Notes: generated by a model from the letters alone, not told the origin. DNA of 64,000 bases from Bdellovibrionia bacterium (GCA_030427965.1 JAUICD010000001.1:82625-146624); one strand, 5' to 3'; positions 7,376 to 63,755 are shown, counted from the first letter of the stretch. Numbers and translations are program-made.

Positions 7376-8302
7376 ATGGCAGAAAAGGTAATTATAATTG
7401 GATCAGGTCCAGCGGGATTGACCGCAGCAATTTATACGGCTCGTGCAAACTTAGAACCACTCTGCATTGAAGGGGAAGAGCCTGGTGGACAATTGATGAT
7501 CACTTCCGATGTTGAGAATTATCCAGGTTTTGCTGAGGGTATCACTGGCCCTGCTTTGATGGAAATTCAGAGAAAGCAGGCTGAAAGGTTTGGAACAAAA
7601 TTTATCACGGCAAATGTAACCAAAGTGGATTTTTCAAGTCGGCCATTCAAAGTTTGGGTGGGAGATAAAGAATATCAATCTCACTCTATTATTATAAGTA
7701 CTGGAGCAACAGCGAAGTACCTTGGCTTGGAATCTGAGAAAAAACTTATGGGCCGAGGAGTGTCTGCATGTGCAACATGTGATGGAGCATTTTTTAAAAA
7801 TGTAGAAGTCGCTGTTGTTGGTGGTGGAGATACTGCGATGGAAGAGGCGACTTTTTTGACTCGTTTTGCAACCAAGGTTCATATTTTACATAGGCGTGAA
7901 GAGTTTCGAGCTTCAAAAATTATGGCAGATCGAGCACTTCAACACCCTAAAATACAAGTTCATTGGAACACAGAAGTGGTTGAAGTGCTTGGTGACAAAG
8001 CTGTGAATCAGTTGAAGCTAAATAATACAAAAGATGGGTCAAAAAGCACTTTGGATGTTGAGGGCCTCTTTATAGCAATTGGGCATAAGCCAAATACTTC
8101 AATATTTGAAGGGCAATTGGATATGAATGAAACAGGATATTTGGTGACTCAACCTGATTCGACATACACTTCAGTCGAGGGGGTTTTTGCGGCAGGCGAT
8201 GTGCAAGACCATGTCTATAGACAAGCTGTGACAGCTGCAGGTACAGGGTGTATGGCTGCAATCGATGCAGAAAGGTGGCTTGAAGCCAAAGAGATTGGAT
8301 GA
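7376..8302 (+). CDS. trxB: thioredoxin-disulfide reductase
   Basis: GSGPAG FAD motif, redox-active CATCDG, GGGDTAMEEA NADPH motif. Start chosen at MAEKVIIIG (ATG 7376) after AGGAGG at 7366-7371. Confidence 0.92.
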   Translation: MAEKVIIIGSGPAGLTAAIYTARANLEPLCIEGEEPGGQLMITSDVENYPGFAEGITGPALMEIQRKQAERFGTKFITANVTKVDFSSRPFKVWVGDKEYQSHSIIISTGATAKYLGLESEKKLMGRGVSACATCDGAFFKNVEVAVVGGGDTAMEEATFLTRFATKVHILHRREEFRASKIMADRALQHPKIQVHWNTEVVEVLGDKAVNQLKLNNTKDGSKSTLDVEGLFIAIGHKPNTSIFEGQLDMNETGYLVTQPDSTYTSVEGVFAAGDVQDHVYRQAVTAAGTGCMAAIDAERWLEAKEIG

Positions 8303-8802
8303 GCCAAAAAAACTTAAGTATCAAAGGTGTTGTAGAAAAAATTGAAAAAATGGCAAAAGCTCGGATGTCTGAGCAAGATGTTGTTTCGCTTGATAAATTT
8401 CGTGGCTTAAAAGATAAAAATAGCCCGAAGCACATCCTACTTATTGATGATGACCCTACGGTTCGAAAATCTTTGGTTCGAGCTCTTGAAAAAGACAACT
8501 ATAAGGTTTTGGCTATAGAAGATGGAACACGTCTTTCAGAGGTCTTGGACCCTAGTATTCCAATAGATTTTATTATTCTAGATATAGGGCTTCCTTGGTT
8601 GGATGGTTATGAACTCGCCTCTGTTTTGAAAGAAAGTGAAGAGCTTGAAGATATTCCTATGATTTTTCTATCTGGGCGCAAGGAAGAGGACGACGTGAAG
8701 CGTGGCTTTGAGGCAGGAGCAGATGATTATATCAAAAAGCCCTTTGACTTGAAGCAACTTAAAAAAACTATTGAAACGCTAATTTCATTGAGAGAGTCGT
8801 AG
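8299..8802 (+). CDS. single-domain response regulator (CheY-like receiver with about 55-aa N-terminal extension)
   Basis: Receiver motifs: DDD acidic pocket, phospho-acceptor context IILDIGLP, FLSG, KKPF. No output domain. ATGA overlap with the trxB stop. Confidence 0.85.
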   Translation: MSQKNLSIKGVVEKIEKMAKARMSEQDVVSLDKFRGLKDKNSPKHILLIDDDPTVRKSLVRALEKDNYKVLAIEDGTRLSEVLDPSIPIDFIILDIGLPWLDGYELASVLKESEELEDIPMIFLSGRKEEDDVKRGFEAGADDYIKKPFDLKQLKKTIETLISLRES

Positions 8803-34919: not shown

Positions 34920-34939
34920 TTGTTGTGCAGAAATTTTAT

Positions 34940-35659
34940 ATGAGATCATTTGTACTAAAGTTAGTAACGTTGAGTATATTGATACTGCCGACAACTTCAT
35001 TTGCAAAACTCAATAGATTTACGGGCTTTGAAAACGGGGATATGGGTATCTCTGTTTTACTCGGACAACCCACCCAGGCACGTTTTGTTTACTGGGAAGA
35101 TTGGAAAACTCAGTGGAATTTTGGACTAGGCTATGATTTCAATAACTTTGTCGACGTTGAAGCCAATTACGCTCTTTACTCTTACAATGCTCGTGATATT
35201 TGGAAAAAAAATCGTGTTCGAAACGCTTTTCTTTTTAAATATGGACCTGGGGTATTTGTTTTAGGAAGACTTTTTGGTGGAGGTGGTGGAAAGAGTTTTA
35301 GAGCTGGTGCCAGAGCCTTTACTGGACTGGATTATATTTTTGGCGGTTCTAGATGGGCTTTAAATGGAGAAATTGCAGGCCTTGTGTTTGCTGTGGGTGA
35401 TGAGTTTCTGGGGTTTCAGGGAATGGTAGGGGTGACTTTTTACTTTGCTCCTTTAGGCCGTCGTAAAAAAAATGAGCCAAACCTTAGAGAGGACGATGAA
35501 TTTAGTGAAGCTCCTCCGCCGCGAAAGAGAAAGAAAAGGAAAAAAAGAAGACGAAGGCCTACAAAAAAGAAGCTAAAAGACCCCAATGCTTGGGAAGGAG
35601 AAGAGTGGGATGAAAAAGAGGCAGCCCCTGGAGATGAAAATCTGGATGAGTTTCTATAG
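34940..35659 (+). CDS. small outer-membrane beta-barrel-like protein with ~70-aa charged/polybasic C-terminal tail
   Basis: Signal peptide (…LPTTSFA). Alternating aromatic/Gly beta-strand pattern ending in an OMP-type beta-signal GVTFYF. Tail follows: ...PPPRKRKKRKKRRRRPTKKKLK...EEWDEKE... Confidence 0.55.
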   Translation: MRSFVLKLVTLSILILPTTSFAKLNRFTGFENGDMGISVLLGQPTQARFVYWEDWKTQWNFGLGYDFNNFVDVEANYALYSYNARDIWKKNRVRNAFLFKYGPGVFVLGRLFGGGGGKSFRAGARAFTGLDYIFGGSRWALNGEIAGLVFAVGDEFLGFQGMVGVTFYFAPLGRRKKNEPNLREDDEFSEAPPPRKRKKRKKRRRRPTKKKLKDPNAWEGEEWDEKEAAPGDENLDEFL

Positions 35660-36331
35660 CTCAAGAACTCCTATCCAATAAGGCTCTTTGCTATTTTTTG
35701 ACAAAATCCTTCCGACATTTTCAATATTTATTTCATCACTAGATAAATTATAAATCTCTTTGGAGATATGATCTCTTGAGATCATGAGAATCTTGTTTCC
35801 ACTCTTTGCATAAAACGATTCAGTTTGAAAATCAAATCGTCTTTCTAGGCCTAAAACTTGATTTGGAAGACGACTTTCACCCTGTTGATTCATTTGATAG
35901 TTCAAAGATGGAGTATGTTTAATTGGAATTGGAAAGTTTTCTGGATTGATAAAATATGTATTGGGTTGACCGACCTGGATAATAGAAATTTCATTTTGAC
36001 CTATAGCAATTAATACTGTTTCAACTCCAATAGTGTATTGTTCACGATTGAATTCTTGATATAGTTTTTCATTACCAAGCATAGCTGCTGTTCTTAAATG
36101 ATTGGCTGAATCTGAAAGTTGTGGCACTTTGGGAAAAGGAGACGTGGAATCACTGTCCCTGATTGCACTTAAGTAAAAATCAACGATTGTATCGGTAAAA
36201 ATTCTTGATTTTGATTTTGAACCCCACGGTGTTGTAGCCACAAAAAGGCCGTGTTCAGATTCTAAGTGAAAATCGGGTGCTTGTATATACGAACTATCTC
36301 CCTTAAAGGATCTCTGTTGAAACATTATCAT
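35654..36331 (-). CDS. PP2C-like protein with substituted metal-binding motifs (putative pseudophosphatase)
   Basis: Collinear with the bacterial PP2C layout, but DGMGG reads TTPWGS, GDSR reads GQPN and SDGL reads SRDH. ATGA overlap with the upstream FHA gene. Confidence 0.4.
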   Translation of the reverse strand: MIMFQQRSFKGDSSYIQAPDFHLESEHGLFVATTPWGSKSKSRIFTDTIVDFYLSAIRDSDSTSPFPKVPQLSDSANHLRTAAMLGNEKLYQEFNREQYTIGVETVLIAIGQNEISIIQVGQPNTYFINPENFPIPIKHTPSLNYQMNQQGESRLPNQVLGLERRFDFQTESFYAKSGNKILMISRDHISKEIYNLSSDEINIENVGRILSKNSKEPYWIGVLEL

Positions 36332-38316
36332 GGTCCATACTTCTTCATTTTGATTTTTGATTTTTTATAGTACTCACCATCAGGCACATCAATTTCTACA
36401 ATTTTTTTCCATTTCCCTTTGGCATTCTCAATATTGCCAAGGTTCTCTTCAAGGATTGCATCTTGAAACATAACTCTTGTTTTTTTCAGAAGCTCTTTGT
36501 TAGAGCGAGTGATTTGATCTCGAGCCCTACTATTTTGAGGATCGAGTGCCAGTGCTTTTCGTATTGTGAGTATTGCTGTTTTATAATCCTGGGCATCGTG
36601 AGCTTTGTTGGCTTCTGAAACATACTTTGAAACCTGTCCCTCAATTTTGGTTCGAATACTTTGTATACTTCGTTTGGACTTTTCTTTGAATTTTTTTGGA
36701 TCTGGGTAACTGGAATTTAAATGATGTTGGTAGGCATCGATGGCATCTAAGAGCTTTCCCTTTGCTTCAATCGATTTAGCTTTTTGATAAGATGCAATTC
36801 CTCGTCGAACCTGTGCTTGGAAGTGTTCTTTGCTGGCAAGCTTGCGCCTTCTTTCTTGTACAAGAGCTTCAACTTTTGCAATGATTTGTCTAGATTTTTG
36901 ATTCTCAGGATCTAGCTCTAAAGCTTTTTGTAGGCAAGTTCTTGTTTTATCAATGTTGGGTTTTGAATAGGCGTTCCTCTCACAACCAGACACGATGCGG
37001 TGGACTTTGCTTTTTAATTTAGATTCCTCTGCTTGCATTCGTTCAAGCTCTTCTTGTTGACGGAGAGTTTCAATGGCTTGTCGGCTATATCGCTCGATGT
37101 CTCTTGAGTCTTTGTAGTTTGGTAGAGTTTCATGAATTGTACGAATTTCAGCAAGAGCAAGTTCATATTTACTAGATTTGTAAAACTTGTCTGCAGATCG
37201 ATACTTGCTTTCAATCAATGCTTGTTTCTCTGGTGGAAGAGAGTCAAAGACATTCTTTGGCACTTTTTGTTCTGTGGCTAAGTCTTTCTTATTTGAATCA
37301 ACATCGTTGAGACCTATATACAGAGCTCCTAGAATTACTGAAATCACTATAATTCGAAAAACTCCTCTGGCTTTACCTGATTTCTTTGTTCGCCTTTCTG
37401 GAGGTGGAATTCGTACCGCTCCAGCTGGTCCAGGTAAATAAGCAGTGTCATTTGTATCAAAAGAATCTAGATCTTTTTGAAGAACTTGAAGTTGCTTTTG
37501 AAACCTAGGGTCTCGTAATTCAAAATAGATTTTAAATTCTTTTATTTCAAGTCGATCTCCACTATCGAGTGGAACGCGAGTTCCTGGATTTAAAGGCTCT
37601 CCATTTAAATTTGTACCATTTGAACTATTGAGATCTATAACAAAGTATTCTTTTGCAGATTTGACAATTTCAAAGTGTTCGCGACTTGCTCTTGGGTGGT
37701 TGATTTGAATTTGACAATCTTCATCTCGCCCCGCAGTCCAAGATTCACCTTCCAGCTTAAGTACTTCATCTGGTACTCCGGGAGAAGTCAGTCTGATATA
37801 GGGTTCAAGGTGACTTGCACTATCATCGTTTGAATCATAAAACTGTGTTTTTTCATCAAAACTGGAATCAGTTTCTGTGGCGCCATATGTTGGATTTTTT
37901 CCAGACTCAAAATCGACTTCTGAATCTTGATCCGGTGTAAATGAAATGTCTTCTTCTGATTGAGACCCTAGGGCTTCGGTTTCTCCAAGAACTTCGGTGG
38001 CTTTCAACTGTTCTTCAGTGGAATCCAAATCAAAGAAAATACGATATTGTGAAAACCACACTTCCTGAATGTCATCATTGATTTCAATTTCAGAAAGGTT
38101 GGTATCTCCAGTATGACTTAAGAGAGAAAATTTCGAAAGACATTCGATTTTCCAGTGATCATTATCAAATACAATTTTGATGTGCTTTCTTGAGATAGAC
38201 TCATCTTCAATCACAATATCACAATCTAAAGATCGACCAATGAGGACCTCCTGTTCAGGATTGAGATCCAGTTCCACAATGATACTATCTCTGTTGTATA
38301 ATATAAGTCTTGCCAT
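36328..38316 (-). CDS. dual-FHA, single-pass membrane protein with long TPR/coiled-coil C-terminal region
   Basis: FHA1 (aa ~22-96: IGRSLDCDIVIEDESISRKHIKI, distal motif degenerate). FHA2 (aa ~190-266: AGRDEDCQIQINHPRASREHFEIV...DLNSSNGTNLNG). TM at aa ~318-336, then TPR-like repeats. Confidence 0.8.
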   Translation of the reverse strand: MARLILYNRDSIIVELDLNPEQEVLIGRSLDCDIVIEDESISRKHIKIVFDNDHWKIECLSKFSLLSHTGDTNLSEIEINDDIQEVWFSQYRIFFDLDSTEEQLKATEVLGETEALGSQSEEDISFTPDQDSEVDFESGKNPTYGATETDSSFDEKTQFYDSNDDSASHLEPYIRLTSPGVPDEVLKLEGESWTAGRDEDCQIQINHPRASREHFEIVKSAKEYFVIDLNSSNGTNLNGEPLNPGTRVPLDSGDRLEIKEFKIYFELRDPRFQKQLQVLQKDLDSFDTNDTAYLPGPAGAVRIPPPERRTKKSGKARGVFRIIVISVILGALYIGLNDVDSNKKDLATEQKVPKNVFDSLPPEKQALIESKYRSADKFYKSSKYELALAEIRTIHETLPNYKDSRDIERYSRQAIETLRQQEELERMQAEESKLKSKVHRIVSGCERNAYSKPNIDKTRTCLQKALELDPENQKSRQIIAKVEALVQERRRKLASKEHFQAQVRRGIASYQKAKSIEAKGKLLDAIDAYQHHLNSSYPDPKKFKEKSKRSIQSIRTKIEGQVSKYVSEANKAHDAQDYKTAILTIRKALALDPQNSRARDQITRSNKELLKKTRVMFQDAILEENLGNIENAKGKWKKIVEIDVPDGEYYKKSKIKMKKYGP

Positions 38317-39254
38317 TAAAATTGATCCTTAATGAGTAGTATACATTCATTTAGTCTTTCTCGAGTTTCACGATAGAGTTTGCTGTTTTGGTCACGATTC
38401 AATCTTAAGACTTGTCGGTATTTTGCCGCCGCTTTTGTGAACATTTTCTGTTCATAGTGTCTATTTGCTTCAAGTAGGGTAATTTGAATCAATTCATCAA
38501 GTTTCGTTTGGGACTGAGTAAGGTATCTTCGTGCTAAACTGTGATTTGGATATATTGAAACAGCTCCTGAAAAATAATGAATTGCTCGTTGATAGTTTTT
38601 TTCTCGATAATCTCTGAAGCCTTGTATAAAAAGAGCTTGTGCTTCTTTGTACTCAGATGAATTTTTCCCAGAAGCTTGTCTGGATCGAATAATTTCATTT
38701 TGATTTTGTTTAATAGCATCTATGGATTGTTCGATATCAGAGTCAGATCTCAAACCATTTTCTTTGTCTTTTGTTGAACTGTCGGAAAGAAGAAAATAAA
38801 GAATAATCGAAATGACGCCAAGTATGGCATAAAATCGAAACTTAGAATTGTTGTTTTTGGGTTTTCCAATTTCTGGAAAATCATCAATAATCTCACCTAC
38901 AGCACCACTTCTGGGTTCTGCTGAACTCAATTGCCCGGTTTCTATAACTTTGAGTTTAGTTGATCCAATGAGTATGATGGTGTTTGAACCAACGAGTGCA
39001 TTGTCTTCTTTTTGTCCATTGATAGTGATTTGATTCTGTTTGCTCACGTTTACAATTTGCAAACCAGATTCAGAAACATAGATAGTTGCGTGCTGACGAC
39101 TGCATTTCGGATCATCTAAAATGATATCGTTTTCAGGGCCACGTCCAATGTGAATTTGTTCTCTGAGCAATTGATACTCGACTCCTTTGTCGGGTCCATT
39201 GAGAACTTTTAAGCGAAACTTATGTAAAGATACAGGAACGGGTTGATTGCTCAT
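38316..39254 (-). CDS. FHA-domain single-pass membrane protein with TPR-like C-terminal domain
   Basis: IGRGPENDIILDDPKCSRQHATI ... ITINGQ FHA motifs. TM FRFYAILGVISIILYFLLS. The C-terminus has TPR-like AQALFIQGFRDYREKNYQRAIHYF. Confidence 0.8.
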   Translation of the reverse strand: MSNQPVPVSLHKFRLKVLNGPDKGVEYQLLREQIHIGRGPENDIILDDPKCSRQHATIYVSESGLQIVNVSKQNQITINGQKEDNALVGSNTIILIGSTKLKVIETGQLSSAEPRSGAVGEIIDDFPEIGKPKNNNSKFRFYAILGVISIILYFLLSDSSTKDKENGLRSDSDIEQSIDAIKQNQNEIIRSRQASGKNSSEYKEAQALFIQGFRDYREKNYQRAIHYFSGAVSIYPNHSLARRYLTQSQTKLDELIQITLLEANRHYEQKMFTKAAAKYRQVLRLNRDQNSKLYRETRERLNECILLIKDQF

Positions 39255-40793
39255 TTAAAACCCTCCCGCATTTTGATCTGTGATAGTTACGATGACATAT
39301 CTTGGTCCATTTGTATCAGTTATAACTTGTGCTTCGATGTCATGAACAATAGATCTGAACTCAATATTTCCTGATGCCACAGAGTTGGGGTTTGAAATAG
39401 CAGTCTGAAGAATATCTTGAAGGTTGAGAAGTAGGGGGCCATCTGGGATTTCTTCAATAGGTCTGTTATAAAGTATGCCGCCATTTGCCCCAATGAGATT
39501 TTCACAATCAGAATTTATAGCAATAATTGTGTTATGCATATCAATAATCATTGCTGGAGATTTGATGACTTTAACAACATTGTTGGCTTCCACTGTCACA
39601 TCAAATGTGGGTAACAAATCATGATCTAGAGGAGTGCCAATTCTTGAGAGTGCGCTATTGATGTTGACTGAAAGGCGTTGAATGGGTGGGTAGTTATAAG
39701 GTACTGATGTTTCATCAGTACCTTCCTTTAGTGCTTGATCAATTTGCTGATTGAGATTTTTAATTGGATACTCAATAAGTTTATATAGCAAAAAGTAAAG
39801 AATGAATCCCAAAAGAATTGCAAATGCGAGAACTTGTACAAAAAGACGAAGTACATCACTTGTTCGAATAGCTCTTGAGCCCATGTCATAGATGACAATT
39901 GAAAAAGCTCTAATGGATCGTTCACCTGTATCTGGGTTTAAAACTTGTATGGGTGTACTGGCCCCAATGAGAGAATCTGTAATTTGTTTTGTAATTCCAC
40001 GTACTTTTTTTCTGGCAACGTGAACAAATGGAAGATCTGGGTTTTGTCCAATTTTTCGTGCAGGAGCAAGTATGTGGCCATCATTTGCATCCACAACCAA
40101 AGCCGTTTGAACTCCCTGCACTCTTTCTTCTTCAATGGTAAAAGTAGCTCCGAGCCCGGTATTTAAAGCCGCTCGATATCGATTGGCTAAGTTTTTTGAA
40201 ATATCGGTAGCTCGTAACTGACTTTCCTGCTCGATTCTCTCTTTTGAAATTTGAATCATTGGTACAATTGCAAGAAGAGTTACCATAAAAATATAAATCA
40301 ATATAAAGCTTCCAAGCAGCCATCGAAACTCAGCCCATTCAGCTAATTTGTAAACACCAGGGAGCGCAACATTCTCAATGTAACTCTGTAGTGTCTTCAG
40401 CAATGAGTTTTGTACAACAGCTCCCGTTGCACTTTCTACATCAACTTTTAAGTTCAAAGCGTTGTTCCCTTGAACTTGTAGTTCGTTTTGTACAGCAAGA
40501 GAGTTTTGTTGTTCGGTTATTTCTATAAAAATTTCGTTTACGGTGATTTTATCACCAGCCTGGAGTATTGCTGTTTTGACAAGTATTCCGTTAACAAATG
40601 TTCCGTTACTTGAGCTAAGATCTTGTAAAATATAGTTTTCATTTTGTTTTGTTATTTTAAAATGCTTTCTTGAAATACTGGCATGTGGAATTTGTAAATC
40701 ACAATTGGCTTCTCGTCCAACAATGTTGTCTCCAGGTTTGATCTGATAGGTTGTTCCGGATACTGGTCCGGTAAGGACTTTAATGTACAACAC
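39255..40793 (-). CDS. FHA-domain protein fused to a 2-TM sensor-like module (periplasmic loop, HAMP-like linker, PAS-like C-terminus), no output domain
   Basis: VGREANCDLQIPHASISRKHFKI...DLSSSNGTFVNG. TM1 WLLGSFILIYIFMVTLLAIVPMI and TM2 LFVQVLAFAILLGFILYFLLY flank ~140 aa. Downstream KLIEYPIKNLNQQIDQAL and a ~110-aa alpha/beta C-terminal region. Confidence 0.72.
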   Translation of the reverse strand: MLYIKVLTGPVSGTTYQIKPGDNIVGREANCDLQIPHASISRKHFKITKQNENYILQDLSSSNGTFVNGILVKTAILQAGDKITVNEIFIEITEQQNSLAVQNELQVQGNNALNLKVDVESATGAVVQNSLLKTLQSYIENVALPGVYKLAEWAEFRWLLGSFILIYIFMVTLLAIVPMIQISKERIEQESQLRATDISKNLANRYRAALNTGLGATFTIEEERVQGVQTALVVDANDGHILAPARKIGQNPDLPFVHVARKKVRGITKQITDSLIGASTPIQVLNPDTGERSIRAFSIVIYDMGSRAIRTSDVLRLFVQVLAFAILLGFILYFLLYKLIEYPIKNLNQQIDQALKEGTDETSVPYNYPPIQRLSVNINSALSRIGTPLDHDLLPTFDVTVEANNVVKVIKSPAMIIDMHNTIIAINSDCENLIGANGGILYNRPIEEIPDGPLLLNLQDILQTAISNPNSVASGNIEFRSIVHDIEAQVITDTNGPRYVIVTITDQNAGGF

Positions 40794-41124
40794 GGAGTTG
40801 ATCTCCTTTTTCTACATCATTGAGCTCACCGGATTGAAATTCAAACACAGAGTCGTATCTAAACCCAGGGAGAGTGAGTCTCCAAGGTTTGAGGTTGCGT
40901 ATTGTTTTTTTAACGATCAAGTTTTTATCTACAAAAATTGCATCAATAGAAAATTTCATGAAGAAAGTATGAATGCTACTACACTTTGATATCCAAAGAG
41001 CAGTTTGCTTAGGAAACTCTTGTTTGCCAAGAAGTCCAATTAATCGATCGACAAATGAATTTGCTAAAATCACGCTTTCAGCAATAACCGAATTTTCTTT
41101 TGAAGTGTTGATCAGACGACTCAT
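40780..41124 (-). CDS. DUF192 (COG1430) family protein
   Basis: Pattern ...FVDRLIGLLGK...ALWISKCSSIHTFFMKFSIDAIFVDKN... matches the DUF192 core (R.GLmgr ... ihm.gM.f.lDiiF.d). Starts 2 nt after the tadC-like stop. Confidence 0.68.
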   Translation of the reverse strand: MSRLINTSKENSVIAESVILANSFVDRLIGLLGKQEFPKQTALWISKCSSIHTFFMKFSIDAIFVDKNLIVKKTIRNLKPWRLTLPGFRYDSVFEFQSGELNDVEKGDQLRVVH

Positions 41125-41126
41125 CG

Positions 41127-42026
41127 TTACCCACCTCCACTGAAGAATTTAAGAACAGCAGGGCCAAAAACCATGATAAATACGGCAGGGATTATTATAA
41201 ACATCAACGGTACGAGTATAAGTTGGGAAGCGCGAGCTCCGGCCTTTTCAGCACGAGTCACTCGTTCCATTCTCATTTGAATGGATTGTTGTTTTAAAAC
41301 ATTTCCAACAGGTGTCCCACTAGCCTCAGCATCAACAACCACAACAACAAAACTTGTAATTTCTTGAATGTCGAGTCGATCAGCCATAGCTTTGAGAGCT
41401 TCGGATCGAGAAGCTCCAACTTTGATATCCCGAAGAACTGTACCAAGTTCATCTGCAAGTACGGAATGATCTGCTTTTTCAACAACCCTTTGAATTGCAG
41501 AAATGAAATCCATCCCTGCGGCCTGTGTAGAGAGAGCAAGTAGATCAATGAAGAAAGGGAGATCTGTGATAATTTCTGTGTAGCGTTTTTGCTTTTCAGA
41601 CTTCACATGCATGTGTGGAAAGAAAGAGCCTCCAAAGCCAAGCAAAATTAAAACTCCTGGGTGATATCCCAATTCCAGTGTGAAGTTTAAGAGTGCTAGT
41701 AGAAGTGGGAAAAGCAGTCCCCAAAGAATTTGCATTCCAATAAACTCATTTACGTTGAGTTCAGTTGAAAGACCTGCTGTAAGAATTTTTCTTTGCACGC
41801 GCTTACGGTAATCTGGAGCCTGTATCTTTGAGACAAGACTCATGCAAAACCTGTGGACAAGTGGACGGGAGAGTTCAATAAATTTGGATTTGGATTTGTC
41901 GGGCTCGTCACCACTTGCCCATGAGAGTGTGGCATTCTCTTCATTTGTTGTGAGAAGCACATTGGATATTAAATAAATGGCAACTCCAACAAGAAGTAGT
42001 CCGCCAATTATCAATAAATCTCCCAT
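41127..42026 (-). CDS. type II secretion system F-domain protein, TadC/TadB-like pilus platform component
   Basis: N-terminal TM, central TMs, T2SSF segment LPFFIDLLALSTQAGMDFISAI...GASRSEALKAMADR...AEKAGARASQLILVPLMFIIIPAVFIMVFGPA. Confidence 0.8.
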   Translation of the reverse strand: MGDLLIIGGLLLVGVAIYLISNVLLTTNEENATLSWASGDEPDKSKSKFIELSRPLVHRFCMSLVSKIQAPDYRKRVQRKILTAGLSTELNVNEFIGMQILWGLLFPLLLALLNFTLELGYHPGVLILLGFGGSFFPHMHVKSEKQKRYTEIITDLPFFIDLLALSTQAAGMDFISAIQRVVEKADHSVLADELGTVLRDIKVGASRSEALKAMADRLDIQEITSFVVVVVDAEASGTPVGNVLKQQSIQMRMERVTRAEKAGARASQLILVPLMFIIIPAVFIMVFGPAVLKFFSGGG

Positions 42027-42056
42027 TTTTACCCTTTACATGTTTTATTGAGCGCC

Positions 42057-42650
42057 ATGACTTCTTTGATATTGGCGTCTCAATCTCCACGTCGTAGCCA
42101 GCTTCTTAAGGAGCTGGGTTATAAGTTTCAAATCCTTACAGTAGAAGTATCGGAAATCCTTGATGAAAACCTGAATTTGGATGAGGGGATTCAGAACATT
42201 GCTAGACAAAAGGCGAGGGCACTTGTTGAAAGTGGTAAGCTTAAGAAATTACACGACTATGTGGTGCTTTCAGGGGACACAGTGGTTGTGTTGGAGGGTC
42301 GTATTTTAGGGAAACCCCAAAATGAAGCTCAAGCTCGTGAATATTTGCGGCTTCTTAGTGGAGCAACGCATAGCGTTAAGACTGGAGTCTGCTTCTACTC
42401 GTCCTTATCTGGCCAGGAGTTAACGACCATTGAAACTTCAGAAGTTGAATTTCACACTCTAACGGATCAGCAGATTTATGAGTACGTTGAGACAGGAGAT
42501 CCAATGGATAAGGCCGGGGCCTATGGCATTCAAAGTTTAGATCGAAATTTTATAAAAGAAATTCGAGGAAGCCGTGAAAATGTGATGGGACTTCCCGTAC
42601 AACTTGTGTCGCAAATAATAGAAAAAAGTGGTTGGAAGTTTGAAAGATAG
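42057..42650 (+). CDS. maf: Maf-family nucleoside triphosphate pyrophosphatase
   Basis: MTSLILASQSPRRSQLLKELG and GAYGIQ motifs. An upstream TTG 42048 is also possible. Confidence 0.88.
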   Translation: MTSLILASQSPRRSQLLKELGYKFQILTVEVSEILDENLNLDEGIQNIARQKARALVESGKLKKLHDYVVLSGDTVVVLEGRILGKPQNEAQAREYLRLLSGATHSVKTGVCFYSSLSGQELTTIETSEVEFHTLTDQQIYEYVETGDPMDKAGAYGIQSLDRNFIKEIRGSRENVMGLPVQLVSQIIEKSGWKFER

Positions 42651-44244: not shown

Positions 44245-45246
44245 TCAAAAGGTCTTTTTCTTCACTTTCCAGAGTGAGTCTGAAAAATATTTTTTTGAAT
44301 CAAAGTATGTTTCAACAACTTCAAATCCAGCTTCCTTTGATAGAAACTCAATATCCTCAATCAAGTACTTGTTGGAATACTCAAGGTGAATGGGTTCAAA
44401 TGCTTTAAAATGAAAAGATTTTTCGAGTGCTTTTATGTCTACGACTTGCTTCTTCTTTGAAATTAAATAGCTTTCCATAGCTCCAATAAGTGGATTGTAC
44501 GTTCCAAAGTGCATAAAGTTATCAAGATCAAAGTTTGCTTTAAGTTCTTTGTTCATGCGTTCCAGTAGGTTGAGATTGAACGCTTTGGTGATTCCTCTTT
44601 TATCGTTGTAAGCATATAGAAGTGTATCGATGTCTTTTTTGAGGTCAAACCCTATTAAAGTAAGGTCATCTTCATTGAGGTGTTTCCATAAAACTCGCAA
44701 GAAAACCAATGCTCCAGATTCATCAAAGTTACCAATTGTGGAGCCAAGAAAAAGAACAACGTTTCGAGCCTTTTTATTGAGATTGATCCAATCAAGTGCA
44801 TCAAGGTATTCTCCGACAATTCCTGAGTGATTGAGGTTTGGGAAATCTTTTTCAAGTGTTGAGTTGAGGTTTTGAACAGCAGCTTCTGAAATATCAATTG
44901 CAATGTACTCAAAATTCAAGCCTTGCTTTGTAAACTCTTCGAGTAAAATTTTGGTTTTTTGGCCATCTCCAGCTCCAAGTTCAATAAGGTTGAATGGTGC
45001 GTCTGAGAGTATATTTGTAATTTTATTTTTGTTTTTTTCAAATACCTCAGCTTCACAGCGAGTGGGGTAGTACTCATCTTGGCTTGTGATTTTAGTGAAC
45101 AGGCGACTTCCTTCATCATCATAAAAATATTTAGAAGGAAGGTATTTCTGTTTAGCTGAAAAGCCTTTGAGTACATCAATTGCAAATTGTTCAAGATGTG
45201 TATTTTCTTTTTTTGATTGGATGTTGTCTAGAATATGAACTGTCAT
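44245..45246 (-). CDS. egtD: L-histidine N-alpha-methyltransferase (ergothioneine pathway)
   Basis: Strong collinearity with EgtD: LPSKYFYDDEGSRLF...EYYPTRCEAEVF...LIELGAGDGQKTKILL. Start at MTVHILD (ATG 45246) directly follows the egtB stop. Confidence 0.85.
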   Translation of the reverse strand: MTVHILDNIQSKKENTHLEQFAIDVLKGFSAKQKYLPSKYFYDDEGSRLFTKITSQDEYYPTRCEAEVFEKNKNKITNILSDAPFNLIELGAGDGQKTKILLEEFTKQGLNFEYIAIDISEAAVQNLNSTLEKDFPNLNHSGIVGEYLDALDWINLNKKARNVVLFLGSTIGNFDESGALVFLRVLWKHLNEDDLTLIGFDLKKDIDTLLYAYNDKRGITKAFNLNLLERMNKELKANFDLDNFMHFGTYNPLIGAMESYLISKKKQVVDIKALEKSFHFKAFEPIHLEYSNKYLIEDIEFLSKEAGFEVVETYFDSKKYFSDSLWKVKKKTF

Positions 45247-46505
45247 AAATCCTCCGCAAGCCGAATGCCTGAAAACATCCATCTTTGATGTGGGTAATAA
45301 AAGTTACGATAAGTATTTCTAAAATGAGATCTAGGTGTTGCAAATGAGCCGCCTCGAAGGACGTATTGCCCACTCATAAATTTTGCATTGTACTCTCCAA
45401 TTGCGCCTTTTGGCCTTCTATACCCTGGGTAGGCAGAGTAACTTGAGGAAGTCCACTCCCAAAGAGTGCCAAATAAATTGGAGATACAATTTTCAGATAA
45501 AGAGGATGTTGGCGAAAGATCTCTAGAGTCACAGAACTGACCGTTGCTATTTCCGTGTGTTTGGCTTGCAATCTCCCACTCTTCTTCAGTTGGAAGCCTT
45601 TTGCCAGACCATTCAGCAAATGCTTCAGCTTCAAAGTGACTGACATGGCTGACTGGGGCATTGGGATCCAATTTTTGAATCCCGTAAAGAGATTTTTCAT
45701 ACCAGTCATTTTCTTTTTTGACCCAATAAAGAGGAGAAGAGAGATCTTCTTTCTGAATGAGATCCCATCCAACACTTTGCCAATAGGAGTAATTTTTGTA
45801 TCCCCCAGTATCGATAAATTCAGCAAAGTCACTGTTTGTTACAAGTCGATTGGAGATGCGTGAACCATTTAGATAGGTTTTGTGTTTTGGTGTTTCATTG
45901 TCGAATCGAAATGGGGATTTTTGGTTTGTACCAATGCTGTATTCTCCACCTGGGAGTTCTATGTATTTTTGAGGAATGTGCTCAGATATTTTGGCTGACC
46001 CCTTTGAATACTGAATGTTTGAAATACTCAAAGAGAAGTTACGCTTGATATCCATGAGCAATAGCTCTTGGTGTTGTTGTTCATGGTTGATTCCAATTTC
46101 AAGGTTCAATAGCAAGTTTTGATATTCAGGGTGACCTGAGTGTTTTTGAAGAACGTCTATAACTTTTTGTGTGATTTCTTTTCGGTAGGTCAAAATTTCT
46201 TTCACTGTCGGGCGTGATAAGTGCCCTCGTTCAGACTGTTTCCAGTGCGGACCAAGAGATTTGTAATACGAATTAAAAAGCACATTGTAGGAAGGGTTAA
46301 ATGGTGTGTAGTTCGGATTTATAAATTCCAAAACAAATTTTTCAAAAAACCATGTTGTGTGTGCAAGATGCCACTTCGGTGGGCTGACATCTGGATGGCT
46401 TTGAACAACAAAATCTTCAATTTCCAGATTTTGGCAGAGGCTTTCGGTGAAGGTCCGGGCTTCTAGGAATTTATGCTGCGCGGGGTCATCACTTGGTACG
46501 CCCAT
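45243..46505 (-). CDS. egtB: EgtB-type sulfoxide synthase (DinB-like plus FGE-sulfatase domains)
   Basis: DinB-type His ligands (HLAHTTWFFE; INHEQQHQELL = H-x3-H). C-terminal FGE-like domain ending RGGSFATP...MFSGIRLAEDL. Start is ATG 46505 (after AAGGAG) or ATG 46562. Confidence 0.85.
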   Translation of the reverse strand: MGVPSDDPAQHKFLEARTFTESLCQNLEIEDFVVQSHPDVSPPKWHLAHTTWFFEKFVLEFINPNYTPFNPSYNVLFNSYYKSLGPHWKQSERGHLSRPTVKEILTYRKEITQKVIDVLQKHSGHPEYQNLLLNLEIGINHEQQHQELLLMDIKRNFSLSISNIQYSKGSAKISEHIPQKYIELPGGEYSIGTNQKSPFRFDNETPKHKTYLNGSRISNRLVTNSDFAEFIDTGGYKNYSYWQSVGWDLIQKEDLSSPLYWVKKENDWYEKSLYGIQKLDPNAPVSHVSHFEAEAFAEWSGKRLPTEEEWEIASQTHGNSNGQFCDSRDLSPTSSLSENCISNLFGTLWEWTSSSYSAYPGYRRPKGAIGEYNAKFMSGQYVLRGGSFATPRSHFRNTYRNFYYPHQRWMFSGIRLAEDL

Positions 46506-46714
46506 CTCTTTTCTCCTTGTAGAGAGGTGGGGTGGTCCGAAATCTGATGGGTATACAAACATGAAGTTTGATGGAATTGAAGTTTTAACTCGCTATTTGT
46601 AGAGGTGAAACGCTCTATAAAAGAGGTGACATAATATTTCTAGACGTAAACCTTGGGGAATGTGGTTGCGTAAAGGTCAGATTCAACTTTATCCTATTGA
46701 TAGAGGGGTAAGTT

Positions 46715-62909: not shown

Positions 62910-63755
62910 ATGGGACTCAGAGTCAATACCAACGTAGCTTCGTTGAACGCTCAACGAAACTTATTTGGGACAAAGTTAAGACTTGATAAAAGTCTAGAAC
63001 GATTGTCCTCAGGTTACCGGATTAATAAAGCTGGTGACGATGCGGCAGGTTTGGCCATCTCGGAAAATCTCCGTGCTCAAATTAGGGGGCTCAAGCAGGC
63101 CAGCCGAAACGTCCAGGATAGTATTTCGCTGATCCAGGTCGCAGAAGGTGGACTGAATGAAACCTCAAGTATATTGATTCGGCTTCGTGAACTTGCAGTT
63201 CAAGCCGCATCAGATACTATTGGGCCGGTTGAGAGGCAGTTTTTGAATGTGGAATACGATCAGTTGGTCTCAGAGATCGACCGAATTGCAGATGCCACAG
63301 AATTTAACGGCACAAACCTACTTAATGGAACGGGAGCTATCCTGGATTTTCAGATCGGTATTCGTAACGATCCGTCAATTGATAGACTCTCATTTGATGC
63401 TTCCAAAGCAGATTCAAATTCGGCAGCACTAGGTGTAAATCTCACCTCGGTTGCAGATAAAGCATCTGCGCAAAACAGTCTTGCGGCTCTTGACGGTGCA
63501 ATTATGAACGTCAACGCCATGAGAGCTGATTTTGGAGCACTACAAAGTCGCCTTCAGTCGACATTTACGAACCTGCAGATCTCACATGAGAACTTATCTG
63601 CGGCAAACTCTCGGATTCGTGACGTAGATGTTGCAGAAGAGACGGCTGAGTTGACGAGAAATAATGTGTTATTACAAGCTGGTACTTCGGTTCTCGCGCA
63701 AGCGAACCAGTCCTCGTCTGTTGCACTATCACTCCTGAACCAGACATTTAGTTAA
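62910..63755 (+). CDS. fliC: flagellin
   Basis: MGLRVNTNVASLNAQRNL...LSSGYRINKAGDDAAGLAISE N-terminal D0/D1 and conserved C-terminus ...VLAQANQSSSVALSLL. Short (281 aa) variable region. Confidence 0.93.
   Translation: MGLRVNTNVASLNAQRNLFGTKLRLDKSLERLSSGYRINKAGDDAAGLAISENLRAQIRGLKQASRNVQDSISLIQVAEGGLNETSSILIRLRELAVQAASDTIGPVERQFLNVEYDQLVSEIDRIADATEFNGTNLLNGTGAILDFQIGIRNDPSIDRLSFDASKADSNSAALGVNLTSVADKASAQNSLAALDGAIMNVNAMRADFGALQSRLQSTFTNLQISHENLSAANSRIRDVDVAEETAELTRNNVLLQAGTSVLAQANQSSSVALSLLNQTFS

Follow-up and report, generated by a model that had tools for sequence, protein, structure and literature searches.

A tadC operon orthologous to Bd0470-Bd0475 in an uncultured Bdellovibrionales predator, with candidate phosphothreonine-reading FHA proteins and a probable pseudophosphatase

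Introduction

The predatory bacterium Bdellovibrio bacteriovorus HD100 possesses a complete yet dispersed Tad machine (10.64898/2026.07.08.737194), which is polar and required for both attachment to and invasion of prey (10.64898/2026.07.08.737194). Its tad locus 1 (Bd0110-Bd0119) holds the ATPase gene and tadB (Bd0110) (10.64898/2026.07.08.737194; PMC8460266), while the TadC gene lies outside that locus, beside genes for TPR, FHA and PAS-domain proteins (10.64898/2026.07.08.737194). The genes in question, Bd0470-Bd0475, form one operon (PMC12034629), which was also named, together with Bd0470 and Bd0474 phenotypes, in PMC6561027. Here, a six-gene operon in a 64,000-nucleotide stretch of DNA from a Bdellovibrionia bacterium (GCA_030427965.1 JAUICD010000001.1:82625-146624; the whole stretch is referred to as the window) is identified as the orthologue of Bd0470-Bd0475 in an uncultured Bdellovibrionales predator. 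The operon itself has already been published and the window contributes a new, divergent member and no new system; what remains of interest is the role of the FHA, PP2C-like and DUF192 proteins that accompany tadC.

Bd0470 is the reciprocal-best-hit orthologue of the Myxococcus xanthus protein KilH (Seef et al. 2021, PMC8460266). Attempts to delete tadC in HD100 failed, and TadC-mCherry was seen as a focus at the invasive pole, where RomR and the secretin RcpA are also found (10.64898/2026.07.08.737194). A Bd0470 transposon mutant (Bd0470::tn) neither attaches to nor kills prey, and a Bd0474 mutant (Bd0474::tn, class II) attaches without killing or rounding the prey, both defects being complemented (Duncan et al. 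2019, PMC6561027). Bd0474 (674 amino acids, aa) has two cytoplasmic FHA domains and an extracytoplasmic TPR domain, and binds the predation-essential protein Bd0075 in a two-hybrid assay; Bd0075 is a GYF-transmembrane (TM)-TPR protein and no Tad component (PMC12034629). Bd0475 is predicted to interact with Bd0473, with an interface predicted template-modelling score (ipTM) of 0.604 (PMC12034629). The signalling genes beside tadC are mentioned, without being studied, in the preprint on the Tad machine (10.64898/2026.07.08.737194).

In M. xanthus, Kil cluster 2 (MXAN_4648-4651) likewise belongs to a Tad-like predation machine, and KilH is encoded directly beside MXAN_4649 (FHA, PrgH-like) and MXAN_4648 (FHA plus TPR) (PMC8460266). 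FHA proteins are over-represented in the Kil clusters, TadD and RcpB are absent from them, and a contact-triggered activation logic has been proposed by the Kil authors (PMC8460266); a 2025 review terms the FHA proteins of the kil clusters "promising candidates". The wider question, which the present comparison sharpens, is how predators convert contact with prey into activation of the Tad/Kil machine.

Identity and conservation of the operon

Six open reading frames (ORFs) run head to tail on the minus strand of the window, spanning 35654-42026:

41127-42026, minus strand: tadC, 299 aa
40780-41124, minus strand: DUF192 gene, 114 aa
39255-40793, minus strand: FHA-A, 512 aa
38316-39254, minus strand: FHA-B, 312 aa
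36328-38316, minus strand: FHA-C, 662 aa
35654-36331, minus strand: gene 6, 225 aa

The junctions, read directly from the sequence, are all tight. tadC and the DUF192 gene are separated by 2 nucleotides (nt; TAA-CG-ATG), and the DUF192 gene overlaps FHA-A by 14 nt, FHA-A beginning with GTG behind an AAAGGAG Shine-Dalgarno-like motif. FHA-A and FHA-B abut, with TAA followed immediately by ATG, and the sequences TAATG and ATGA are common to FHA-B and FHA-C and to FHA-C and gene 6, respectively. An earlier note, made from the sequence of the window alone, had placed the six ORFs and all five junctions exactly so; its domain assignments (a TadC-like protein, a DUF192 protein and four FHA domains, each N-terminal to a TM segment and cytoplasmic, with TPR or sensor-like parts outside) stand up to Pfam searches and hydropathy-based topology prediction, and its degenerate PP2C-like sixth protein to structure prediction.

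TadC matches Pfam T2SSF (2.4e-16) at residues 159-287, covering 124/125 model positions, and hydropathy marks hydrophobic or TM segments at 2-20, 95-113 and 269-287. Platform subunits are characterised by one T2SSF (GspF-like) domain within a polytopic protein of the inner membrane, ~300 aa long. The protein shares 57% identity over 94% of its length with its counterpart at the B. bacteriovorus locus, which is Bd0470 according to the literature, and the synteny is identical. The tadC product is the inner-membrane platform subunit of a Kil-like Tad (type IVc) pilus machine and the orthologue of Bd0470 and KilH.

B. bacteriovorus HD100 has the same six genes in the same order and with the same domain layouts as the window, and the flanks match as well, with maf upstream and divergent and a sulfatase gene and exbB/exbD downstream. 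The proteins are of similar size (299/114/512/312/662/225 aa in the window, 302/116/555/383/680/228 aa in B. bacteriovorus strains). The window differs in coming from an uncultured Bdellovibrionales lineage of ~40% guanine-plus-cytosine content, whose accessory proteins are 24-45% identical to those of B. bacteriovorus, in an additional convergent ORF (34925-35659) and in an EgtD/EgtB-like gene pair that interrupts the upstream synteny. No Hanks-type kinase, T2SSE/TadA-type ATPase, second T2SSF protein (TadB), secretin or Flp-type or other pilin was found by Pfam among 56 ORFs scanned across the 64-kb window, the six operon genes included, the remaining ORFs being otherwise housekeeping in character; the missing Tad parts are encoded in tad locus 1 in B. 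bacteriovorus. The locus is no textbook tad locus, as the earlier note had said.

Related loci were collected by a TadC-alignment scan of species-representative genomes, which yielded 330 relatives, and the best 80 were taken; all 80 are Bdellovibrionales and they include B. bacteriovorus and several Bdellovibrio isolates. The source names of the TadC homologues are Bdellovibrionales, Bdellovibrionaceae or Pseudobdellovibrionaceae. In three homologues on long contigs, a divergent maf was followed every time by T2SSF, DUF192, FHA, FHA, 2xFHA and an unannotated protein of 223-232 aa. The earlier note had named failed profile searches and a gene order not conserved in any relative as grounds for refutation, and neither applies: the profiles bear out the domain calls, and when the six window proteins were used in tblastn all were matched, in order and on a single strand, in essentially every sufficiently long locus. 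Identity to the window proteins was 54-72% for TadC (80 loci, same synteny throughout), 35-56% for DUF192, 28-46% for FHA-A, 25-43% for FHA-B, 26-36% for FHA-C and 24-36% for gene 6.

The junction distances, in gene order, cluster at -1, -14, -4/-1, -1 and -1/-4 nt (57-76 non-redundant loci per junction); start choice favoured codons near the upstream stop, which biases these counts towards tight junctions, albeit a start codon still has to be present there. The 14-nt overlap of the DUF192 stop with the FHA-A start is found in 47/75 loci. Upstream, maf adjoins tadC in 79 of the 85 fetched loci (all but 6), and the sulfatase gene and exbB/exbD are likewise syntenic downstream. Since essentially all fetched relatives with a long enough locus have this arrangement, it lies far beyond chance, and this order-wide conservation of gene order and junctions is new here.

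Gene 6 is the exception to this uniformity, being absent from loci L002, L009, L011, L059, L077 and L078. Three of these (L002, L009 and L011) form a subclade of close relatives with 70-72% TadC identity, and in L002 a GCV_H gene follows directly after FHA-C. The loci lacking gene 6 also have wider FHA-B to FHA-C gaps, of 16-23 nt. Two contigs of one metagenome bin (JBBKWS01; L023 and L025) each hold the whole operon in a nearly identical layout, which probably reflects strain heterogeneity of the bin and not a true duplication.

The FHA and DUF192 proteins

Four FHA domains are encoded in total, one in FHA-A, one in FHA-B and two in FHA-C (Pfam). In all three proteins the FHA domain precedes the TM segment and there is no N-terminal signal peptide, so the default topology places the FHA domains in the cytoplasm and, in FHA-B and FHA-C, the C-terminus in the periplasm.

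FHA-A, the equivalent of Bd0472, consists of an FHA domain (Pfam FHA 2.7e-19, 69.8 bits, cutoff 20.7), TM1 (159-177), a periplasmic domain of ~140 aa, TM2 (317-335), a helical linker and a C-terminal PAS domain, with both TM segments placed by hydropathy. Its domains lie as follows:

40524-40781, minus strand: FHA domain of FHA-A (~residues 5-90), with the canonical phosphothreonine (pThr)-binding set GR26-27, SRKH41-44 and NGT63-65
39846-40262, minus strand: periplasmic domain of FHA-A (residues 178-316), possibly Cache/PDC-like on weak matches
39279-39611, minus strand: C-terminal cytoplasmic PAS-like domain of FHA-A (~residues 395-505), with PAS-family matches in orthologues

The binding pocket is strongly conserved: G26, R27, S41, S61, N63 and G64 are identical in 71/71 orthologues and H44 in 70/71. 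The best PDB matches of the FHA-A profile are FhaA, Ki-67, GarA and Bdellovibrio DgcB (6hbz), with Rv1747 lower and OdhI also among the matches; most of these relatives, including FhaA, GarA, DgcB and Rv1747, are genuine pThr readers. Matches of the periplasmic domain are weak (sCache_3_2 in 3/15 orthologues, best 0.015; dCache_1 in 1/15, 0.007), and it has no significant match in the PDB. PAS, PAS_9, PAS_4 or PAS_8 matches were obtained at the C-terminus in 13/28 orthologues (best 6e-8), and the PAS-like domain is weakly similar to the PAS domain of the ThkA sensor (3a0r, E = 0.041). Judged by its predicted domains, the architecture of FHA-A is sensor-like and resembles that of a sensor lacking a kinase output, a layout recognised here for the first time.

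FHA-B, the equivalent of Bd0473, has a cytoplasmic FHA domain, one TM segment (139-157, hydropathy) and a periplasmic TPR region, with Pfam matches to Yop-YscD_cpl (3.6e-19), FHA (1.8e-12, 47.9 bits, cutoff 20.7) and TPR_2 (2.4e-08). In its pocket, G37, R38 and S52 are present in 67/67 orthologues, H55 in 60/67 and N74 in 54/67. FHA-C, the equivalent of Bd0474, has two FHA domains separated by an acidic, variable linker, one TM segment (318-336, hydropathy) and a periplasmic TPR-rich region of ~320 aa; Pfam recognises two FHA stretches (6.4e-30, 103.8 bits, cutoff 20.7), and the TPR matches are sub-threshold. In FHA1 of this protein G27, R28, S42 and H45 are kept in 63/63 orthologues and the Asn loop is absent, while in FHA2 G196, R197, S211, S231 and N233 are kept in at least 61/63, the motif His being His in 41 and Gln in 22. 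Across the four FHA domains the Gly-Arg and Ser are thus present in at least 61 of 63-71 orthologues, and in three of them in 100%. The near-invariance of these pockets, together with PDB relatives that are mostly genuine pThr readers, favours true phosphopeptide reading.

The periplasmic TPR regions of FHA-B and FHA-C are generic and weakly similar to each other, the FHA-B part matching only consensus TPR designs. The idea that they substitute for the TadD pilotin was dropped, as only consensus TPR designs and no specific similarity to TadD, PilF or PilW emerged; NCBIfam matches to PilW, BamD and Amuc_1098 were far below their cutoffs.

The linker between the two FHA domains of FHA-C is hypervariable and acidic and ranges from 28 to 111 residues across orthologues, and within it one threonine is nearly invariant, an observation that is new here and on which the Bd0474 paper (PMC12034629) is silent:

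37846-37848, minus strand: Thr157 codon of FHA-C, translated in the context FDEKTQFYD; Thr in 61/63 orthologues

Thr157 lies in the motif [D/E]-[K/A/R]-T-[V/F]-[V/I]-G, which precedes the Gly-Arg of FHA2 by 33-36 residues in most orthologues (32-39 overall); the residue corresponds to T131 in B. bacteriovorus Bd16 (L072). Thr157 could be either a candidate phospho-acceptor, in the manner of GarA, OdhI and Rv1747, or a structural extension of FHA2.

The DUF192 protein, the equivalent of Bd0471, is supported by a Pfam DUF192 match of 2.6e-13. Orthologues are 110-119 aa long and their inspected N-termini carry no hydrophobic, signal-like segment; the protein is predicted to be cytoplasmic because it has no signal peptide or TM segment. 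No PDB sequence match and no informative literature were found for it.

Gene 6, a PP2C-fold protein

Gene 6 is the equivalent of Bd0475 and encodes a stand-alone protein of 225 aa. On its own it has no Pfam match, and a word-indexed homologue search returned only the protein itself; in NCBIfam there is a weak Stp1/PP2C match (E = 0.042). Among 28 orthologues taken from the related loci, 5/28 gave weak SpoIIE and 2/28 weak PP2C matches, and a profile of these 28 found only Stp1 in the PDB, with E = 1.3. A wider, exhaustive profile search of 1.84 billion proteins gathered 398 clusters at 50% identity; almost all of the 150 clusters listed are stand-alone proteins of ~210-245 aa, and some family members are named PP2C or PPM domain proteins by their source.

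The fold was established more clearly by structure prediction. An AlphaFold (AF2) model built with 48 sequences reached a predicted local distance difference test (pLDDT) value of 89.4 and a predicted template-modelling score (pTM) of 0.87, and Foldseek matched it in the PDB to PPM phosphatases only, with PstP at 2e-13 and PppA (6jkv) at 6e-11, followed by tPphA, MsPP, Stp1, SpoIIE and RsbX. The Foldseek probability was 1.00 and TM-scores were mostly 0.6-0.7 among the top matches. A 71-sequence profile of the family then retrieved tPphA at E = 2e-5, so that catalytic motifs could be compared: VGDSR of tPphA becomes vGqP, and CSDG becomes lsrs, in the family alignment. The invariant residues of the 71 sequences are W36, T63, N95, E104, G121 and G161. 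None is an aspartate, the sole near-invariant one being D59, which is placed in the loop after helix 1, and T-x-W-G occupies the place of DGxGG according to the secondary structure of the model, without an explicit alignment. The PPM fold is therefore present while metal-binding aspartates are missing at the two aligned motifs, and for this reason gene 6 most likely encodes a pseudophosphatase, an assignment made here for the first time from the model and the family alignment.

A putative phosphothreonine-reading layer around the Tad platform

Two elements are combined in the interpretation favoured here: a conserved tadC operon orthologous to Bd0470-Bd0475, and a putative pThr-reading layer around the Tad platform. 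The combination is given a probability of about 0.6. TadC is one of two platform subunits of a machine whose tadB, tadZA ATPase, rcpA secretin and flp pilin genes presumably lie elsewhere in the genome, and its five accessory proteins are translationally coupled to it. The three FHA proteins would surround the TadB/TadC platform as a transmembrane layer, with TPR or sensor parts that touch envelope partners in the periplasm, for which the Bd0474-Bd0075 interaction is a published precedent, and with cytoplasmic FHA domains that dock on phospho-Thr sites made by a Hanks-type kinase encoded elsewhere. The Thr157 motif of FHA-C would be one candidate site. The pseudo-PP2C could bind a phospho-site or an FHA domain without catalysis and so shield it, and the outcome may be the gating or positioning of Tad activity after prey contact.

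A more specific version of this scheme is a phospho-switch without enzymes in cis, in which a remote kinase would mark Thr157 and the FHA proteins would dock on themselves or on each other, activating or clustering TadB/TadC after prey contact; contact would be sensed through the periplasmic and PAS modules of FHA-A and the TPR-Bd0075 link, and the pseudo-PP2C would protect the phospho-site. In this full form the scheme is unlikely to be correct, although, if true, it would be an unusual way to regulate a type IV filament machine.

The linkage of TadC with an FHA and an FHA/TPR protein appears common to both predatory lineages and may be ancestral, since KilH adjoins MXAN_4649 and MXAN_4648; the parallel, which is based on the annotated domains, is newly drawn here. 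The M. xanthus arrangement differs in that KilH is still beside KilG (TadB) and pilin genes, neither a DUF192 nor a PP2C-like gene is among those listed, and the ATPase KilF itself bears an FHA domain. The H1 type VI secretion system (T6SS) of Pseudomonas aeruginosa, with PpkA, PppA and Fha1, is likewise an envelope-spanning machine with FHA readers and a PP2C-fold protein. Unlike that system, the window operon has no kinase in cis, its PP2C-like protein lacks catalytic aspartates at the aligned motifs, its FHA proteins are anchored in the membrane and carry TPR or sensor parts in the periplasm whereas Fha1 is soluble, and the machine is a Tad pilus and not a T6SS. The operon cannot be assigned to the T6SS-type threonine phosphorylation pathway, as neither a kinase in cis (56 window ORFs and flanks of relatives) nor a catalytic phosphatase was found. 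The two FHA domains of FHA-C, with their variable acidic linker and conserved Thr, also resemble the twin or self-recognising FHA regulators Rv1747, GarA/OdhI and DgcB. FHA-C differs from these in the Gly at +3 and the near-fixed spacing of its motif, so that the self-docking comparison is offered as an idea only, and its effector part is a TM segment with periplasmic TPR, not an ATP-binding cassette transporter, enzyme inhibitor or GGDEF domain.

Several points weigh against a pThr-reading layer. No kinase is encoded among the 56 window ORFs and no phosphoproteomic data on the operon proteins were found in the literature searched. FHA domains can work without phosphate, as in SctD of the type III secretion system (T3SS), and FHA-A, FHA-B and FHA-C all match Yop-YscD_cpl strongly (6e-14 to 4e-19, Pfam). 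Because the Bd0470 (class I) and Bd0474 (class II) mutants differ, any action of the FHA proteins on the platform may be indirect, and contact between TadC and the FHA proteins is only inferred. The Thr157 motif has Gly at +3, unlike the hydrophobic or acidic residue usually preferred by FHA domains at pT+3, and its near-fixed distance from FHA2 could mean that it is just a structural strand. Loss of catalysis in gene 6 is deduced from alignment, with two catalytic motifs aligned explicitly (not DGxGG and DN), and the gene is dispensable in some lineages, since it is missing from the loci named above.

The main rival is a structural scaffold, in which FHA-TM-periplasmic subunits would build, independently of phosphate, an inner-membrane ring or alignment complex like SctD/PrgH/YscD that replaces TadD and RcpB, with the FHA domains serving as protein-protein contacts with the ATPase or platform. 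The Yop-YscD_cpl matches fit this explanation, as does the layout that the FHA proteins have in common with SctD (YscD/PrgH), namely a cytoplasmic FHA-type domain, a single TM segment and a periplasmic domain; so do the absence of a kinase from the operon and window and the catalytic degeneration of the PP2C-like protein. SctD-type FHA domains have lost their pThr-binding residues, however, whereas here Gly-Arg and Ser are near-invariant across 63-71 species, with His and Asn also kept in FHA-A, and the periplasmic parts are either generic TPR without ring-building motifs or, in FHA-A, of the sensor type, with PAS and possibly Cache modules. NCBIfam type_III_yscD scored only 18-38 bits against a cutoff of 86, on the N-terminal FHA region alone, and a full-length SctD is not indicated. 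Still in favour of a scaffold, MXAN_4649 beside KilH is annotated as PrgH-like (PMC8460266), TadD and RcpB are unlisted among the B. bacteriovorus Tad parts (10.64898/2026.07.08.737194) and both are absent from Kil systems. Such a scaffold is improbable, and it would not exclude phospho-reading.

Quite unlikely is the explanation that the FHA, DUF192 and PP2C-like genes serve another predation step, such as post-attachment breaching of the envelope or gliding/polarity coupling via Bd0075, and use the tadC operon merely for attack-phase expression. It draws on the mutants, as Bd0474::tn attaches normally and fails to kill or round prey while Bd0470::tn fails to attach, and on Bd0075, which is no Tad component, being the sole experimentally shown partner of Bd0474. 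An FHA protein paired with a GYF protein also recalls GltG and GltJ of the gliding machine; however, NCBIfam GltG scored 16-31 bits against a cutoff of 650 on the FHA proteins, on the FHA region only, and the FHA proteins do not qualify as GltG. Against mere co-expression stand the tight, overlapping junctions with tadC in ~57-76 loci and the recurrence of the TadC-FHA-FHA/TPR adjacency in the Myxococcus Kil cluster. Moreover, the Tad machine acts in invasion, a post-attachment step (10.64898/2026.07.08.737194), which makes the Bd0474 phenotype compatible with a Tad role.

The earlier note had proposed a self-contained, phospho-regulated module built on an orphan TadC paralogue and independent of canonical Tad. 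A compact, translationally coupled operon in 64 kb without other tad genes, kinase or ATPase was compatible with this. The proposal is largely refuted and now very improbable, as the B. bacteriovorus orthologue Bd0470 is the TadC that the preprint assigns to the Tad machine, is the KilH orthologue, resisted deletion and is located at the pole with RcpA, while tad locus 1 holds tadB and the ATPase gene. As is evident from TadB/TadC and PilC architecture, a lone protein with one T2SSF domain needs a TadB partner to form a platform. Because TadC is the platform subunit of a Tad machine, the module cannot be called self-contained and would depend on tadB, tadZA, rcpA, flp and presumably a kinase, all encoded at other loci. 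The link between Tad-like machines and predation that the same note mentioned was correct, as the Kil (PMC8460266) and Bdellovibrio Tad (10.64898/2026.07.08.737194) studies attest.

The comparative result is that, in the fetched Bdellovibrionales loci, an accessory set is kept with tadC in which the FHA pockets are constrained, the PP2C-fold protein is apparently unable to bind catalytic metals and a linker Thr is near-invariant. The specific residues are mutational targets in a genetically tractable predator.

Flanking genes and other features of the window

As the earlier note had reported, the operon is flanked by a divergent maf on one side and a convergent ORF, labelled there as a beta-barrel gene (a putative assignment), on the other:

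42027-42056, no strand: divergent tadC-maf intergenic region, ~30 nt; maf probably starts with the ATG at 42057
34925-35659, plus strand: convergent ORF without a Pfam match; its signal peptide is followed by a Gly-rich middle part and a tail highly charged with Lys, Arg and Glu

Because the tadC-maf spacing is only ~30 nt, the tadC promoter must lie within or beyond the maf start, and each promoter of the divergent pair has to be inside the other gene or further off. A promoter consensus scan gave sigma-70-like sites at no higher rate than shuffled sequence did, a sigma-28-type pattern had no match upstream of tadC, and a terminator consensus scan gave only weak terminator-like sites. The convergent ORF and the 3' end of gene 6 overlap over 6 nt; the ORF is present only in a subset of relatives (L003, L006, L010, L023, L025, L040 and L043). 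No Pkinase match was found in the flanks of the related loci whose gene context was read. A reading of the locus as a defence system was rejected, as PADLOC models yielded nothing relevant.

The only other signalling or motility genes found in the window encode a stand-alone response-regulator receiver protein (8299-8802) and flagellin (62910-63755), neither of which adjoins the operon. Further upstream of the operon, the minus strand at 44245-46562 carries what looks like a gene pair for ergothioneine synthesis, one EgtD-like (Methyltransf_33, 5e-98) and the other EgtB-like (DinB_2 plus FGE-sulfatase). The two genes sit between proC and divIVA and break the yggS-proC-divIVA synteny; in the relatives L003, L004 and L005, proC, divIVA and a yggU-like gene are adjoining or nearly so, and the pair looks like a lineage-specific insertion.

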